Assembly (NCBI GenBank): GCA_947449035.1
Contig: CANFQC010000008.1
Coordinates: forward strand, 4,617-68,616
Length of the DNA: 64,000 nucleotides
Source of the DNA: Actinomycetota bacterium
GTDB lineage: Bacteria; Actinomycetota; Actinomycetes; S36-B12
Direction of reading: 5' to 3'
Shown here: one piece after another, positions 34,839-44,769 of the stretch
Layout: the number at the start of each line of letters is the position of its first letter
Position numbering within the stretch: position 1 is the first letter of the stretch
Position numbers and translations under genes: made by a program
Notes under the pieces: model-generated
Told to the model about the DNA's origin: nothing
The model's input: the letters and a program-made list of their open reading frames with translations, nothing else
Databases searched by the model: none

Positions 34839-34914
34839 TCCCCCATAGCTCAATTGGCAGAGCATTCGACTGTTAATCGAAGGGTTTCTGGTTCGAGTCC
34901 AGATGGGGGAGCCA
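34839..34914 (+). tRNA. tRNA-Asn (GTT)
   Basis: TCCCCCA/TGGGGGA acceptor stem, TTCGA-CTGTTAA-TCGAA anticodon arm, GGTTCGAGTCC T arm, encoded CCA. Confidence 0.97.
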
Positions 34915-36977: not shown

Positions 36978-37051
36978 GGGGCGGTAGCTCAGCTGGTTAG
37001 AGCCCCGGACTCATAATCTGGTCGTCGTCGGTTCGAGCCCGACCCGCCCCA
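36978..37051 (+). tRNA. tRNA with CAT anticodon, probably tRNA-Ile2 (lysidine type)
   Basis: GGGGCGG/CCGCCCC acceptor, CCGGA-CTCATAA-TCTGG anticodon arm, discriminator A, no encoded CCA; lacks initiator features; Ile2 versus elongator Met is an inference. Confidence 0.9.
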
Positions 37052-39391: not shown

Positions 39392-40597
39392 ATGCGCAGG
39401 TTATTGGTAACGGTTGCCTCGATTGCTGCGCTCGTTGTTCCTGGGGTCTGGTCCAGTCCGGTTGCATTAGCGTCAGTCGGGGATGTCACCTTCACCAACA
39501 AGACCACCCTCGACGGACTCGGAAACGACCGAACGTACGGCGTGTTTGCCGCCGGTGGCACGGTATATGCCGCAACTTCCGCGGGCCTGAGTATCTCCAC
39601 CGATGGCGGGGCGTCGTTCACCAACAAGACCACGGGCAGTGGACTTGGCGACAACCAGGTAAACGGCGTTTATGTCGCCGGAGGCACGATCTATGTCGCC
39701 ACCGGCGGGGGTCTGAGTATTTCCACGGATGGCGGCGCCTCCTTCATCAACAAGACCACCACTAGCGGACTCGCCGACAATTACGTGTATTGCGTTTATG
39801 CCTCCGGTGACACGATCTACGCAGGCACATCCTCGGGCTTGAGTATCTCCACGGATGGCGGGACGTCATTTACGACCAAGACCGCCATCGCCAATGGACT
39901 TGGCGATGACTATGTGTACGGCGTTTTTGCCGCAGGTGGCGTGATTTACGCTGCTACCAACGCGGGCTTGAGTATCTCGGCAGATGGCGGCACGTCGTTC
40001 ACCAACAAGACCACCATCAGTGGACTCGGTGACAACGTCGTGAACGGCGTTTTTGCCGGGGGTGGCGTGATTTACGCCGCCACCTTCGCAGGCTTGAGTA
40101 TCTCCACGGATGGCGCGGCATCCTTCATCAACAAGCCCGTCGGGAGCGGATTCGGGAACGACAGTGCGTACAGCGTGTACGCCTCTGGCGCCACTGTCTA
40201 CGTCGGTACCGCCTCAGGCTTGAGTATTTCCACAGATAGCGGGACTTCCTTTACCAACTACACGACCACGAGCGGACTCGGAAATGACACCGTGCCGGGC
40301 GTGTATGCGGACGACAGCACGATCTACGCCGCTACCGCCGGAGGGTTGGGTATCTCCCATTCCTTCGCGGCTGTTGGGAGCGATGTGCCAGTCGCACCAA
40401 TGCAGGCATACGGGCGAGGAGCCGACGGAAAATGCGACAGCAATGCACCTTCGTGGGTGAACTGGTCCGGGGTTGCTGACAAGCAATACGCGGCTTGGGT
40501 TACGAGCTGGCAGTGGTGGCCGAATAACGGAACTGGCGGATATGTATGTGTACGCCAGCCGTACTACACCACGAGCAACGCTTGGGCCGTTCAGTAA
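39392..40597 (+). CDS. secreted seven-repeat beta-propeller protein with Trp/Cys C-terminal module
   Basis: signal peptide (ALA); seven ~42-aa repeats FTNKTTxxGLGxxxVxGV..TIYAAT..GLSISTDGG. Confidence 0.85.
   Translation: MRRLLVTVASIAALVVPGVWSSPVALASVGDVTFTNKTTLDGLGNDRTYGVFAAGGTVYAATSAGLSISTDGGASFTNKTTGSGLGDNQVNGVYVAGGTIYVATGGGLSISTDGGASFINKTTTSGLADNYVYCVYASGDTIYAGTSSGLSISTDGGTSFTTKTAIANGLGDDYVYGVFAAGGVIYAATNAGLSISADGGTSFTNKTTISGLGDNVVNGVFAGGGVIYAATFAGLSISTDGAASFINKPVGSGFGNDSAYSVYASGATVYVGTASGLSISTDSGTSFTNYTTTSGLGNDTVPGVYADDSTIYAATAGGLGISHSFAAVGSDVPVAPMQAYGRGADGKCDSNAPSWVNWSGVADKQYAAWVTSWQWWPNNGTGGYVCVRQPYYTTSNAWAVQ
39487..40357 (+). repeat. intragenic tandem repeats (~126 nt x 7)
   Basis: recurring TGAGTATCTCCACGGATGGCG and TTCACCAACAAGACCAC. 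Confidence 0.85.
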
Positions 40598-40657: not shown

Positions 40658-41662
40658 CTACCGTGGGTTGACCTCGGCACTTTGCAGAGAAGGTATTACC
40701 TCATTCAGTACGTCAACCACTTGCTGCACATGGGGATGCATCAGAACGCTGCCGTGATTGCCCGCGGCCTCAAGCACAGTGATGTGCGGTGTAAGCCCCA
40801 TCCATGTTGCGGCGGCGCGCGAATCTGCGACTTGGAGCACCGTGATCGGGAAGTCCGCGGGCGCAGGTCGGTAACGTCTTCGAGCGCGTGCAGCGATGCC
40901 GCCAATCAGTCGATAGCGATCTGCCCCGGCTGGCACGGTGCGCACCGTTCGGTTGTAGTAGGCGTATCGCAAGCGTTCGCGAAACTCACTGATTCTGCTC
41001 TGTAATCGAGCTGGGTCCAACTGCCGCGTTGACACCACTTTCGTCCGAAGCGTTCGGTCGTACACCAGGTAGGAATCAATCATGATGACATGGGTGAGGC
41101 GACCGTCACGTCGCAACAGCTGAGCACATTCGTAAGCGGGGACACCACCAGCTGAGTACGCGACCATGACGACTGGTCCCTCTGGTTGATACTGCCGAAC
41201 CTGGTCGTACAGATCGGCTCCGGCTTCGGGAATGCTTCGAGCGACTCTGCCCTGATTGTGCATCCCCTCCGGTTCGATGACCACGACTGGTTGATGCGAT
41301 GGGAGTGAATCAATCAGAGCCGCGAACGCCAATCCGGTTCCAGCTGGAGCACTGACGCAGTGAATGGGCGGGAGTGTTCCTGAATCATGGAAAAGCAGGC
41401 TTGCTGACTGCCGCAGTGGGGGCGTCCGCAGTATGTGCGCGGCAATGGCGGCAGAAGTTCGATACGTCAGAAAGATCGTTGGGTCAATGTCAGCGAGTCC
41501 CGCTTCGGAACACGCCTCAGCGAGTTCCAAAGCGTTGAGTGAGTCGAAGCCGGCATCCCAGAGGTCATCGTCAAGCCGCAGATCCTCCCGCATCATCTCC
41601 ACGCGAGCAGCGCTCAGCACGAAGGACTGGAGCTCGTGCAGCGGGCGAAGCGGTTCAGTCAT
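40658..41662 (-). CDS. stand-alone carrier protein (PCP/ACP)-thioesterase didomain
   Basis: DDDLWDAGFDSL phosphopantetheine site; TE motifs AYSAGG, IDS, GNHGSVL. Confidence 0.82.
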   Translation of the reverse strand: MTEPLRPLHELQSFVLSAARVEMMREDLRLDDDLWDAGFDSLNALELAEACSEAGLADIDPTIFLTYRTSAAIAAHILRTPPLRQSASLLFHDSGTLPPIHCVSAPAGTGLAFAALIDSLPSHQPVVVIEPEGMHNQGRVARSIPEAGADLYDQVRQYQPEGPVVMVAYSAGGVPAYECAQLLRRDGRLTHVIMIDSYLVYDRTLRTKVVSTRQLDPARLQSRISEFRERLRYAYYNRTVRTVPAGADRYRLIGGIAARARRRYRPAPADFPITVLQVADSRAAATWMGLTPHITVLEAAGNHGSVLMHPHVQQVVDVLNEVIPSLQSAEVNPR

Positions 41663-41827
41663 CGCTAGATTCTTCTCACGTCGTATCAATGAATGGCTGA
41701 TCAGGACGATAGTCGTGATTGAGCGTGACTTTGGTGAAGCGCGTCTTCGGGCTTCATTGGTCAGATGGGGTTAGGCGTCCTCGACACGGCGTGTCATCGC
41801 GATGAGGGTTCGCGATTGCTCTATACA

Positions 41828-42068
41828 TTGACGAAGACCCCTCGAAGTATGAGTTCGAGGGGTCTTCGCGTTGGCTGCTCGAGTTCCGTCCGATTTCTCG
41901 GGGCCTGCGCCGGATGCTGTCCGTCGCCGCTCGCCTCGCGTTTCCGCGCTGCCGTCTCTCTGTACCGCCTCAGCCCTTCTTCGCGGCCACCCCACCAGCA
42001 TGTGGTGCCCCGGACCTTCCCCGGGCGGGCCTTCGATCTTGGTACTGACCCTCGCCTTGCGGCTCGGT
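41828..42068 (-). ncRNA. candidate structured non-coding RNA (~240 nt), family unassigned
   Basis: promoter at 42103-42075, three GNRA-capped hairpins, purine-rich linkers and a terminal hairpin. Confidence 0.6.
41832..41868 (-). terminator. 15-bp perfect stem ending the candidate ncRNA
   Basis: CGAAGACCCCTCGAA-GTATGAG-TTCGAGGGGTCTTCG; no long U tract. Confidence 0.7.
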
Positions 42069-42074
42069 AGGAGA

Positions 42075-42140
42075 TTTCTACCCCCGCGATACGAGCCGTG
42101 CAAGAGTTTTTTCCAAGAAATTCAAAAAATTTTTTCTTTC
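42075..42140 (-). promoter_or_regulatory. promoter with AT-rich UP-like element
   Basis: minus strand A/T tracts, TTGCAC, 17 nt, TAGAAA(T). Confidence 0.6.
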
Positions 42141-42294
42141 ATCGCTACTCCAGCAACGTTGATACGAATACGTCACATCAGCATCACGCATGCACGGATT
42201 CACGGGACATGCTGATGCTTCGATCGATGCTCATTCTCGCTAGCCTTGGTCGACCGGGACATGACCCGCGCTCAGGACCCGCAGGGGGAGTGAC

Positions 42295-44478
42295 ATGAGA
42301 TTCGAGCGCTTGGGCCATTGGATCTTTCGTCATCGCCGATCGACTCTGGCTGTCGGCACCGTTCTCCTCGTGATTGCGGGCGTGGTCGGCTTTGGTGTCT
42401 TCCCACGACTGCTAGGTGGGGGATACGACGATCCCAACTCAGACTCTGCTGCAGTCGCTCGAATCCTTCAGGATGAGTTCGGATCGCCGGATTCCGACCT
42501 GGTCATCGACTTGGCATTTCCGGGTTCCGCGGCGACACCTGAGGCTGCTGCTGCGGGTACGGCTCTGAGCACTCGAATCGCCGATGTGTCTGACGTACTT
42601 CGAGTGACTGATTACTGGTCAACGGGTGCGACTGCGTTGCTCAGCGCTGACGGAAACTCGTCAGTGATCCTCGTGACCTTCGACCCAAATGCCCCCCGAC
42701 AACCGTCAGAGATCACCGACGAGATCTATTCGATGGTCGACTCGGCGAAGGCATCGGGCGAACTCGCGGGAGCGACTGCCTACATCGGCGGTATTCAGGC
42801 TGTGTTCAAGTCGATCAATGGACAGATCAGCAAGGATCTCGCGAAGTCTGAGTCCATTGCTGTGCCGATCTCGCTGGTGCTGCTTTTCATCATCTTCGGA
42901 AGTCTCGTAGCCGCAGGCATGCCACTTCTTGTCGCCGGCGCATCGATTCTCGGCAGTTTCTTCGTGCTCTACGTGATCTCACTCTTCACTGAGACGTCCG
43001 TATTCGGTCTCAATCTCGTGACCGGCCTCGGGCTGGGGTTGGGCATCGATTACGCGCTGCTCATCGTGAGCCGATTCCGCGAAGAGCTCTTGGTTCAGCC
43101 AAATGTCGAGTCGGCCGTGGCCCGAACAGTGGGCTCAGCTGGGCGCACGGTGTTCTTCTCCGGCTTCACCGTGGGCGTGACTCTCGCGGCACTGCTGTTC
43201 TTTCCGCAGTACTTCCTGCGTTCATTCGCCTACGCGGGTATCTCGGTTGTGGTCTTCGCGATGGTGGGCGCGATCTTGATGCTGCCGGCCGTGCTCTCCA
43301 TGGTCGGCCCGAGAGTTAACTCTCTGCGCATTCGCAAGAACGTGGCACGACCGAGTTCAGGAAGGCGCTGGGCAGCACTTGCCACCTTCATCATGAAATA
43401 CCCGTGGCCAATCGCGCTTGCAGCCATTGCTTTGCTGGGCGTGTTGGCGTGGCCGGCTATGGGGGCCAAGTTCAATCAGGCCGATGAGCGCACCTTGCCG
43501 GTCACCGATTCCACCGTGGTAGCGATCGCCCAGCTGACAGATAACTTCCCCCAATTGGGAGCGTCACCGATCGAGATCATGCTGCCGGCCGGCGTGGATG
43601 CATCAGCGGTGGCTGATTACGCGACTCGCCTTTCGCAGGTGGCGACGATCAAGGTCGTGACGACCCAAGGTGGCACTTATTCAGACGGCGCCCGGGTGGG
43701 AGATTCCTTGCCCACGGTGACCTACCTGTCGCCGCAGCATGAGCGGCTGCTTGCGTATTCGTCGGAGCGTTCGCGGAGCCCCGCAGGTGAAGTGGTGATT
43801 GCCGATGTCCGGGCGACCGCGCCACCCGTCGAGGGTGTGCTCGTGGGCGGCGTGGGAGCCGCGTACACCGATTCGCAGCATGGCATCGGCAAGGCGCTGC
43901 CTTGGGCCATCGCCTGGGTGCTCGCGACCGTGCTGATCCTGGTCTTCCTCTTCACTGGCAGCGTGCTGCTGCCGATTAAGGCCGTGATCCTTAACATGCT
44001 GAGTCTCGCAGCCACCATGGGCGTGTTGGTCTGGGTTTTCCAGGGGGAACACCTCACCTGGCTGGTCGGCACATTTGTCCCGACGGGGGCCATCGACACA
44101 TCAGTAGTCGTCCTCACGGCGATTGTGGCCTTCGGCCTGTCGATGGACTACGAGGTTTTCCTGCTTTCACGCATCAAGGAGGAATACGAGCACACCGGCG
44201 ACAACGTGAGCTCGGTCGCGCATGGTCTCGCGAAGTCAGCGGGCATCATTACGGCGGCTGCACTGTTGCTCGCCATCGTGTTCGCTGCGTTCTTGACCTC
44301 GTCTGTCACCTTGATCAAGGTCCTCGGTCTCGGTGTCGCAGTGGCGATCTTGCTTGATGCATCGATCGTGCGCGTGTTCTTGGTGCCTGCGTTCATGCGC
44401 ATCGCAGGTTCAGCGAACTGGTGGGCGCCTCGACCTCTCAAGAAGATCTACCAACGATTCGGCCTGCACGACGTCTGA
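42295..44478 (+). CDS. MMPL-family RND transporter
   Basis: GLGLGIDYAL..RFREE, GLSMDYEVFLLSRIKE, NWWAP. Confidence 0.93.
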   Translation: MRFERLGHWIFRHRRSTLAVGTVLLVIAGVVGFGVFPRLLGGGYDDPNSDSAAVARILQDEFGSPDSDLVIDLAFPGSAATPEAAAAGTALSTRIADVSDVLRVTDYWSTGATALLSADGNSSVILVTFDPNAPRQPSEITDEIYSMVDSAKASGELAGATAYIGGIQAVFKSINGQISKDLAKSESIAVPISLVLLFIIFGSLVAAGMPLLVAGASILGSFFVLYVISLFTETSVFGLNLVTGLGLGLGIDYALLIVSRFREELLVQPNVESAVARTVGSAGRTVFFSGFTVGVTLAALLFFPQYFLRSFAYAGISVVVFAMVGAILMLPAVLSMVGPRVNSLRIRKNVARPSSGRRWAALATFIMKYPWPIALAAIALLGVLAWPAMGAKFNQADERTLPVTDSTVVAIAQLTDNFPQLGASPIEIMLPAGVDASAVADYATRLSQVATIKVVTTQGGTYSDGARVGDSLPTVTYLSPQHERLLAYSSERSRSPAGEVVIADVRATAPPVEGVLVGGVGAAYTDSQHGIGKALPWAIAWVLATVLILVFLFTGSVLLPIKAVILNMLSLAATMGVLVWVFQGEHLTWLVGTFVPTGAIDTSVVVLTAIVAFGLSMDYEVFLLSRIKEEYEHTGDNVSSVAHGLAKSAGIITAAALLLAIVFAAFLTSSVTLIKVLGLGVAVAILLDASIVRVFLVPAFMRIAGSANWWAPRPLKKIYQRFGLHDV

Positions 44479-44493: not shown

Positions 44494-44769
44494 TTAGTCT
44501 GCGCAGGCGTGATTGGGGGTAGTCCAGTTGTATCCGCCCGCGACCAACTCGAGATCCGAGTCGCTCAACGCCGAACTGGCCGGGATCACGAGATGGATAT
44601 CGGTGGGGGATTCCTCGTGGATGGTGACGCGGACACTGTCAGGAACCTGCTGGCCGGCGAGCGACTCCAGTGCGGAGCGCGGATCGCTCAACAGAGCCGC
44701 GCGAAACTGGGGGTCTTCGGCAATGCGGTCAGCGATTGCCTGATCAATGGTGGTGCGGTCAATGCTCAT
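44494..44769 (-). CDS. NHLP (nitrile hydratase-like leader) RiPP precursor
   Basis: DPQFRAALLSDPRSAL..HEESP..HLVIP leader, LSDSDLELVAGG cleavage motif, core YNWTTPNHACAD. Confidence 0.88.
   Translation of the reverse strand: MSIDRTTIDQAIADRIAEDPQFRAALLSDPRSALESLAGQQVPDSVRVTIHEESPTDIHLVIPASSALSDSDLELVAGGYNWTTPNHACAD

Follow-up and report, generated by a model that had tools for sequence, protein, structure and literature searches.

6S RNA, Ms1 and CoRP are abundant bacterial RNAs whose partner is RNA polymerase (RNAP). Ms1 lies beside the gene for a HAD-IB hydrolase, is 228 nt long in Streptomyces and has 824 predicted members (PMC9130861); PMC6582537 places 6C RNA one gene away from it. CoRP, a 516-nt RNA encoded between tRNA-Glu genes of Corynebacterium, where neither Ms1 nor 6S is present, is an example of how actinobacteria can hold other RNAP-binding RNAs (PMC11077062). 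Here we analyse a 64-kb stretch of DNA (the window) from an actinobacterial genome, G000 (assembly of 2.36 Mb), and an RNA of ~237 nt that appears to be encoded on its minus strand from 42068 to 41831. We put at about 60% the probability that this is a stand-alone, very abundant, compact RNA of an uncatalogued family that acts in trans by binding protein. It would be stable in that role, and its invariant loops would be the recognition surfaces.

The RNA gene and its expression

The RNA occupies the spacer between divergent genes for an MMPL transporter (42295-44478, plus strand; PF03176, E = 5.4e-75) and a carrier-protein/thioesterase (40658-41689, minus strand; PF00550, PF00975). Read along the minus strand, the spacer holds an A/T tract, TTGCAC, 17 nt, TAGAAA, a start at about A42068, a chain of hairpins and a 16-bp hairpin. 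The gene and its promoter elements are the following, where the homologues and the covariance model R1 are those introduced below:

42104-42140, minus strand: A/T-rich, UP-like promoter tract; 29 of 37 bases are A or T
42098-42103, minus strand: -35 hexamer, TTGCAC as read in the sequence; CTTGCG or CTTGTG (CTTGYG) is kept in 51 homologues
42075-42080, minus strand: -10 hexamer TAGAAA, 17 nt past the -35; the consensus in 51 homologues is GTAGAAAT
41831-42068, minus strand: predicted RNA gene, ~237 nt (nucleotide 1 is 42068, nucleotide n is 42069-n), placed by the limits of inter-genus homology, by metatranscriptome contigs and by R1 (182.5 bits, positions 1-249, G000 being itself a model-building sequence)

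Two metatranscriptome runs from two studies (X1 and X2) contained 5-6% of the words sampled from a 2-kb stretch, and all of the contigs lay within 41859-42061: three in X1 and 31 in X2, 19 of the latter at ≥99% identity. Summed depth on this interval reached ~7,000 in X2, and library adapters were joined at 42056-42061 and at 41860-41872. No contig fell on 41000-41858 or 42062-43000, which is no proof that the neighbouring genes are silent. An abundant small transcript would leave such a pattern, with a depth of thousands restricted to the predicted RNA, in line with the abundance proposed when the window was first annotated.

A hairpin scan, made on one genome per species, returned at least 119 stretches, nearly all labelled Actinomycetota and many of them from metagenome-assembled genomes (MAGs) of Candidatus Nanopelagicales. 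Among the hairpin loci listed, a profile of the first 11 RNAs recognized 57 full-length copies, 52 of them distinct. Leaving out one with an N gave alignment A2, of 51 distinct full-length homologues, from which we built the covariance model R1 (G000 is among its source sequences).

The promoter is kept in all 51 homologues, as an A/T tract, CTTGYG and then GTAGAAAT, and the upstream region from -80 to -41 is 68% A/T across them. In G000 the -10 element is followed, 7 nt downstream, by the presumed start, A42068. The initial annotation had called the A/T tract very unusual for this genome. Indeed, of 63,964 37-mers in the window only nine, which overlap and all lie at the tract, reach 29 A/T, and the tract is one of three such regions in the assembly (18 of 2,355,007 37-mers). 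The RNA stretch itself is rich in G+C (67%) and in purines (62%). Similarity between genera extends from the promoter to just past the terminal hairpin. The conserved promoter and terminal hairpin support, at the level of sequence, a stand-alone gene with its own promoter and presumed terminator, and the promoter and start near 42068 had been read in the same places before. A further conserved element, GGGTCAGRAYTT, occurs upstream of the A/T tract, at about -70 from the start, in several clades (L106, L027, L068, L051, L060, L022, L085, L111, L125, L035 and others); it resembles the GGGUCAG found after hairpin P1 in the G000 RNA and could be a regulator site or a coincidence.

The neighbours of the RNA differ within its genus: MMPL and carrier-thioesterase genes in G000, SDR and peptidase S15 genes, or a diacylglycerol (DAG) kinase gene, elsewhere. 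Of the 50 other loci, 42 of which include 600 nt or more of downstream sequence, 27 have a convergent NAD-epimerase/3-beta-HSD gene no further than 600 nt downstream, and no tRNA is a consistent neighbour across loci. These contexts bear on an alternative raised in the initial annotation, an attenuated leader of the carrier-thioesterase gene. Such a cis-acting leader would be an attenuator or a riboswitch, with the terminal hairpin as a conditional terminator. That gene is co-oriented in G000 and starts ~140 nt past the hairpin, but it is absent beside the RNA in the other same-genus loci examined, and the metatranscriptome contigs end within the RNA with none on the downstream gene, although contigs are weak evidence for absence. 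Because the neighbours vary among relatives and the downstream gene is convergent in those 27 loci, we find a leader hardly credible.

A 110-aa open reading frame (ORF; 41771-42103) overlaps the RNA gene, and its conservation at the codon level would have spoken for a protein. Its TTG start, however, is part of the -35 hexamer, and the inner frame with an AUG or GUG start is interrupted by stops in 24 of the 51 homologues, one of them from the window genus. In the absence of a conserved open frame with a usable start we rejected a protein-coding gene and, judging from these sequences, the RNA is non-coding.

Fold and covariation

The proposed fold was written by hand and counted on A2; it comprises 53 pairs in 11 helices, including a kissing-loop. 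In this fold 91.4% of cells are paired, against 35.5-44.7% when the partners are slid by 1-3 columns. Changes on both sides are seen at 33 pairs, in 276 cells, and none of 500 shuffles matched the fold on any of five measures; since related sequences can beat shuffles without structure, the slid controls are the firmer comparison. RNAalifold gave 49 pairs from 11 sequences, 18 of them with compensatory changes; run on 51, it also placed a pairing between the RUGCUG and CAGCAY loops. Folded as a single sequence, the RNA has a minimum free energy of -107.8 kcal/mol, compared with -92.9 ± 4.7 in 200 shuffles (z = -3.14; no shuffle was as low). A mutual-information scan was confounded by clades, and a canonical-pair diagonal scan was noisy at this G+C content. 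From 5′ to 3′, the elements of the RNA are as follows (both-side changes and conservation are those in A2):

42051-42066, minus strand: P1 hairpin with a GCAA tetraloop (42060-42057); helix 1, 5 of 6 pairs changed on both sides
42047-42050, minus strand: conserved GGUC for which no partner was found; ≥90% conserved
41985-42031, minus strand: 5′ domain, P3 (GGCC/GGCC, 42031-42028 with 41988-41985) around P3a (42025-42009) and P4 (42005-41990); helices 2 and 3, with 4 of 4 and 4 of 5 pairs changed on both sides
41996-42001, minus strand: P4 loop AUGCUG, 5′ half of the kissing-loop; pairs with 41919-41914 and covaries
41955-41984, minus strand: purine-rich linker of variable length between the domains; poorly conserved, with insertions
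41933-41952, minus strand: P6 hairpin with a GAAA tetraloop (41944-41941); helices 6 and 7, 6 of 6 pairs changed on both sides
41903-41930, minus strand: P7 hairpin, whose loop CAGCAU (41919-41914) is the 3′ half of the kissing-loop; helices 4, 8 and 9
41890-41901, minus strand: P8 hairpin, CCGA-GAAA-UCGG; helix 10, 99% of cells paired, closing pair AU:25/GC:25
41831-41869, minus strand: terminal 16-bp hairpin with the invariant 7-nt loop CUCAUAC (41853-41847), presumed terminator; helix 11, 8 of 16 pairs changed on both sides

The alignment shows a predicted fold of two domains, 5′ (P1, P3, P3a and P4) and 3′ (P5-P8), tied by a kissing-loop of 4-6 bp between AUGCUG and CAGCAU, a feature absent from the initial annotation. 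One of its pairs is GC:30/AU:8 and another CG:47/UA:4; a U-U stands at one position in 27 sequences. The tandem G.A pairs of P1 in G000 are Watson-Crick pairs in other clades, and the terminal stem is perfect over 15 bp, or 16 counting a G-U. The P3a hairpin is present in each sequence and poorly aligned, and the inner stem of P7 (CGGA/UCCG) is specific to the window genus. A partner for the conserved GGUC, sought in A2, was not found with compensation. The linker 41955-41984 has no supported pairs, and the helices that the single-sequence fold runs through it are unsupported by A2. The three GNRA loops stay GNRA nearly everywhere in A2; in the modelled secondary structure they are shown, together with the invariant CUCAUAC loop, on the outside.

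Most of the hairpins had been picked out before any homologue was known: GCC-GCAA-GGC, CCCGG-GGAAGGU-CCGGG, CGCG-GAAA-CGCG, CGGA-CAGCA-UCCG, CCGA-GAAA-UCGG and the perfect 15-bp stem are all in the sequence. Another does exist, but not in the register first given to it, CACCA-CAUGC-UGGUG, as covariation favours CCAC-AUGCUG-GUGG. A protein sponge, proposed in the initial annotation as one possible role, had been suggested by repeated short hairpins; in this RNA, however, the hairpins are not repeats of one unit. The selection at the RNA level that had been suspected from the tetraloops is borne out by covariation across the 51 homologues.

The unpaired motifs raise the possibility of a base-pairing regulatory small RNA (sRNA), in which GGUC, GCGAGCG or the CUCAUAC loop would pair with mRNAs and alter their translation or stability. 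A stand-alone RNA of sRNA size, with its own promoter and terminator, would suit this role, as would several short unpaired motifs that are ≥90% conserved in A2 and the two or three copies found in some genomes (three in G012, two in G450), paralogues being common in sRNA families. However, most of the conserved loop nucleotides are already engaged internally, in the kissing-loop and the GNRA loops, and GUAUGAG, to which the invariant loop is complementary, shows no enrichment at long-ORF starts across the genome (21 of its 110 sites, near control heptamers). The fold is also far more elaborate than that of typical seed-presenting sRNAs, and the observed depth fits a stoichiometric binder better. 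We consider base pairing with mRNAs unlikely, and prefer protein binding.

Distribution and the terminal hairpin

The RNA is single-copy in G000. BLAST found it, full length and at 91-94% identity, in four of the eight other genomes of the genus, and also in further genera of the family, where identity was 67-74%. Across the order, R1 matches 58 of 151 genomes, G000 among them. Matches that span the full length with 95 bits or more come from 23 genomes of family f1 (G000 included; 33 scored) and from one f7 genome, and the matches in f10 (19 of 32), f7, f5 and f4 are weak or confined to the hairpin. G000 has the traits of the family, namely the promoter, P1 with its GNRA loop, the RUGCUG/CAGCAY kissing-loop, two more GNRA hairpins and the CUCAUAC terminal hairpin. 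Public records with the same RNA are mostly MAGs labelled Candidatus Nanopelagicales or Actinomycetota; the former group dominates among freshwater bacterioplankton and is difficult to cultivate. Full-length copies were also noted in oddly labelled bins (L080 and L082, Rubrivirga; L030 and L111, Bifidobacteriaceae; L125, Aquiluna), which may be mislabelled or mixed. Phage and plasmid collections contained no relative of the RNA; they gave one chance 40-nt match to the A/T tract.

Among 401 genomes of the class, 73 contain the terminal hairpin with up to two mismatches and none contains the reversed control, and every two-mismatch variant in this sample is a compensatory change in the stem. Its loop is CUCAUAC or CUCAUGC, the two positions left free in the pattern being always UA or UG among the 94 matches listed. 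In the same sample the hairpin was not found in large-genome groups, including the Streptomyces-like genus g59. RNAs of this wider family are 160-420 nt long; they have in common the type of promoter, a GGRYC after a 5′ hairpin, and the terminal hairpin. In their bodies no alignment with the G000 type is seen, and on them R1 gains little past the hairpin; homology of the whole RNAs is no more than plausible. At least two GNRA hairpins occur in the 450 nt upstream of 85 of the 118 distinct CUCAUAC hairpins whose upstream sequence was long enough, compared with 6.5% of 477 control stretches. GNRA-rich hairpin RNAs are found in the cultured genera Pedococcus, Phycicoccus, Knoellia and Longivirga, so that the function of these RNAs can be addressed at the bench.

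Further upstream, two or more DnaA-box-like nonamers precede 31 of the 118 CUCAUAC hairpins, the background being 0.17 per 700 nt (the search used the consensus TTGTCCACA with up to one mismatch). None of the 16 CUCAUGC hairpins has GNRA hairpins upstream, and none has DnaA boxes. In many actinobacterial families these clusters of boxes lie 100-800 nt upstream of the CUCAUAC hairpin (L153, L157, L159, L164, L165, L169, L170, L050, L101, L057, L052 and others), where they closely precede the promoters of related GNRA-rich RNAs; neither the window RNA nor any of its close relatives has DnaA boxes. An origin of replication at these loci was rejected, the three loci checked being flanked by VWA-CoxE, SDR and aldehyde dehydrogenase genes and not by dnaA or dnaN.

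Several loci carry tandem or nearby copies of hairpin RNAs (L164, three hairpins in 1.5 kb; L036, L087 and L138, two each; L072, two full copies), and these copies differ by compensatory stem variants. CUCAUGC hairpins (L174-L182 and others) stand alone in short spacers and occur in 18 of 22 genomes of family f25 of the class sample. Three Binatia-labelled MAGs (L075, L102 and L107) have, at one conserved locus, a near-identical stem with the loop CUCAUCC and no GNRA-rich RNA upstream; this hairpin is probably unrelated.

The invariant loop also suggests a different function, in which the terminal hairpin mimics the anticodon arm of a CAU tRNA and the RNA engages a reader of that loop, such as MetRS, TilS, an anticodon nuclease or the ribosomal P site. 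Anticodon loops have a pyrimidine at position 32, U at 33 and a purine at 37. The 7-nt loop C-U-C-A-U-R-C fits this pattern, and CUCAUAC differs from the CUCAUAA of the genome's two CAU tRNAs at the last base alone. The stem, moreover, covaries freely across the class with the free loop positions restricted as described above (three Binatia matches of the wider scan read UC there). If this were true, a superfamily of abundant actinobacterial GNRA-rich RNAs would engage a reader of the tRNA-Met/Ile anticodon and would couple translation or tRNA status to another process. The resemblance, however, is limited to 7 nt. With 16 bp the stem is longer than the 5 bp of an anticodon arm, and the three G-C pairs of initiator tRNA are missing from it. 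Of the two CAU tRNAs found, neither ends its loop in C, and the conserved loop could instead serve termination or 3′-end protection. Mimicry of an anticodon arm is the boldest of the readings considered here and strikes us as distinctly improbable.

Two other features of the window deserve mention. A 91-aa ORF (44494-44769, minus strand) near the MMPL and carrier-thioesterase genes weakly matches nitrile hydratase alpha (E = 4.7e-4, short of the cut-off), contains an ...LELVAGG motif, and looks like the precursor of a ribosomally synthesized and post-translationally modified peptide (RiPP) of the nitrile-hydratase-leader type. A 401-aa secreted-looking protein (39392-40597, plus strand) contains about nine repeats of ...GLSISTDGG(A/T)SFTNKTT... 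and has no Pfam match at E ≤ 0.01.

Comparison with known RNA families

At the gathering score, Rfam 15 (4227 models) recognizes only two tRNAs in the window. On the locus (41600-42350) it yields only chance snoRNA and miRNA matches at E ≤ 10, and on 17 related loci only tRNAs and one Ms_IGR-5 elsewhere. The RNA thus matches no Rfam 15 family, the initial annotation having already seen no signature of SRP RNA, RNase P, tmRNA or common riboswitches, and no description of it was found in the literature, judged partly from titles and abstract openings. A search with RF00013 found no 6S RNA in G000 at E ≤ 1 and had matches in 5 of 14 control genomes; no 6C RNA was found in G000. With no 6S in the genome, the 6S niche is open in G000.

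We also considered that the RNA might be a diverged and relocated member of the Ms1 family. In size it is near the Streptomyces Ms1 (PMC9130861), and its promoter is made up like that of the syntenic Ms1 of a Streptomyces-like genome (A/T tract, CCCTTGCC, 17 nt, TACAAA). In two such genomes the order is CpaE-like gene, 6C, HAD-IB, RNA, convergent gene. At the corresponding site of G000, on contig C22, the same three protein genes are adjacent, the HAD-IB and convergent genes overlap by 4 nt, and there is no Ms1 between them. As tallied from coordinates in the 50 f1 genomes with both genes on one contig, the gap between them is ≤100 nt in 31, 170-237 nt in three and ≥800 nt in 16. Among the gaps read, four of >900 nt each hold a long ORF, with smaller RNAs inside possible, and two of 170-237 nt consist of repeats and were rejected as sites of a syntenic Ms1. 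One of these two, the 237-nt spacer of G003 (L191; C183:10280-10620), is made of tandem 16-17-nt repeats. The other, of 171 nt in G022 (L192; C11:19800-20070), holds inverted-repeat elements, two copies of a perfect inverted repeat (CTCCGTTTGTCCCAT...ATGGGACAAACGGAG) with the look of a miniature inverted-repeat transposable element (MITE).

The Ms1 model, RF02566, does not match the locus at E ≤ 10, nor G000, G012 or G009 at E ≤ 1, whereas the syntenic RNA of a Streptomyces-like genome, our positive control, does so weakly (23.9 bits, E = 3.3e-4); at E ≤ 1 the model also rings in three unrelated control species, so that weak matches mean little. No blastn similarity to Ms1 was seen in the loci searched, where the one match, of 52 nt (E = 0.02), lies ~1.6 kb off the Ms1 site of L189, and tblastn found no HAD-IB gene in ~130 hairpin-bearing loci. 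The fold is different, and the syntenic Streptomyces-like Ms1 has a terminal hairpin unlike that of the window RNA. In Pedococcus the hairpin RNA lies at 3.10 Mb, and 6C and the convergent gene flank a spacer at 2.21 Mb. RF02566 does not score this spacer, which has two 12-nt blocks, in order, in common with the Streptomyces-like Ms1; from synteny and these blocks it probably holds Ms1. The hairpin RNA and Ms1 would then not be simple replacements for each other. We therefore rejected identity with Ms1, and consider descent from it very improbable. Conversely, some of the 824 predicted Ms1 RNAs, among those found by BLAST in Intrasporangiaceae or Nocardioidaceae, may be CUCAUAC-hairpin RNAs.

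We return to a stable RNA that would bind protein in trans. By analogy with 6S, Ms1 and CoRP, the leading candidate for its partner is the transcription machinery, and RNAP in particular, because G000 has no 6S, its syntenic site leaves no space for Ms1, and CoRP sets a precedent (PMC11077062). We offer this partner tentatively, as one possibility among several, and its identity is the weakest step of the explanation. A number of observations weigh against our proposal. BLAST found no RNA in G001, G003, G005 and G006 (82, 98, 94 and 76% complete), four of the eight same-genus genomes, so it may be dispensable or may have been missed by assembly. At the RNA site a simple consensus scan recognized no promoter or terminator; the -10 hexamer TAGAAA ends in A where a T is expected, and the hairpin has no run of T after it. 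The start and end of the RNA are predicted, unmapped positions; the metatranscriptome contigs give no strand, true ends or level, and DNA may occur in RNA libraries. As to RNAP, Pedococcus probably has both a hairpin-bearing relative and a syntenic Ms1, and the predicted fold is branched, with a kissing-loop, in contrast to the rod with a central bubble of Ms1 and 6S; neither a 5′-3′ closing helix nor a central bubble has covariation support in A2.

A covarying RNA of ~237 nt, with a depth in the thousands in an estuary metatranscriptome and absent from Rfam 15, is nonetheless a candidate major housekeeping or regulatory RNA. Given the lack of 6S (G000 alone was searched) and an Ms1 gap of ≤100 nt in 31 of 50 genomes, it would be an obvious candidate for the missing RNAP-binding RNA.

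How, then, does the RNA compare with described ones? Ms1 (RF02566; MTS2823 of M. tuberculosis, scr3559 of S. coelicolor) is likewise abundant and stand-alone, has 230-300 nt and a similar strong promoter (PMC9130861; PMC4191392); the window RNA differs in lacking an RF02566 match and HAD-IB or 6C synteny, and in its terminal hairpin. 6S RNA (RF00013), also abundant, stand-alone and structured, has ~200 nt and a closing stem and bubble, for which the window RNA has no covariation support, and the latter has no RF00013 match. CoRP resembles it in being lineage-specific and abundant where Ms1 and 6S are missing (PMC11077062). The window RNA, with its ~237 nt and its nearest tRNAs 5-7 kb off (Asn at 34839 and Met at 36978, the only ones in the window), is set apart from CoRP by description, not by sequence. 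The orphan complex RNAs known as the raiA motif, OLE, ROOL and GOLLD are distinguished from it by the absence of an Rfam 15 match, as far as the four have models there. They too are stand-alone and combine a number of conserved helices with GNRA loops and a contact of the pseudoknot type. The window RNA is thus a new family within a known kind, that of abundant, stand-alone, structured bacterial RNAs.

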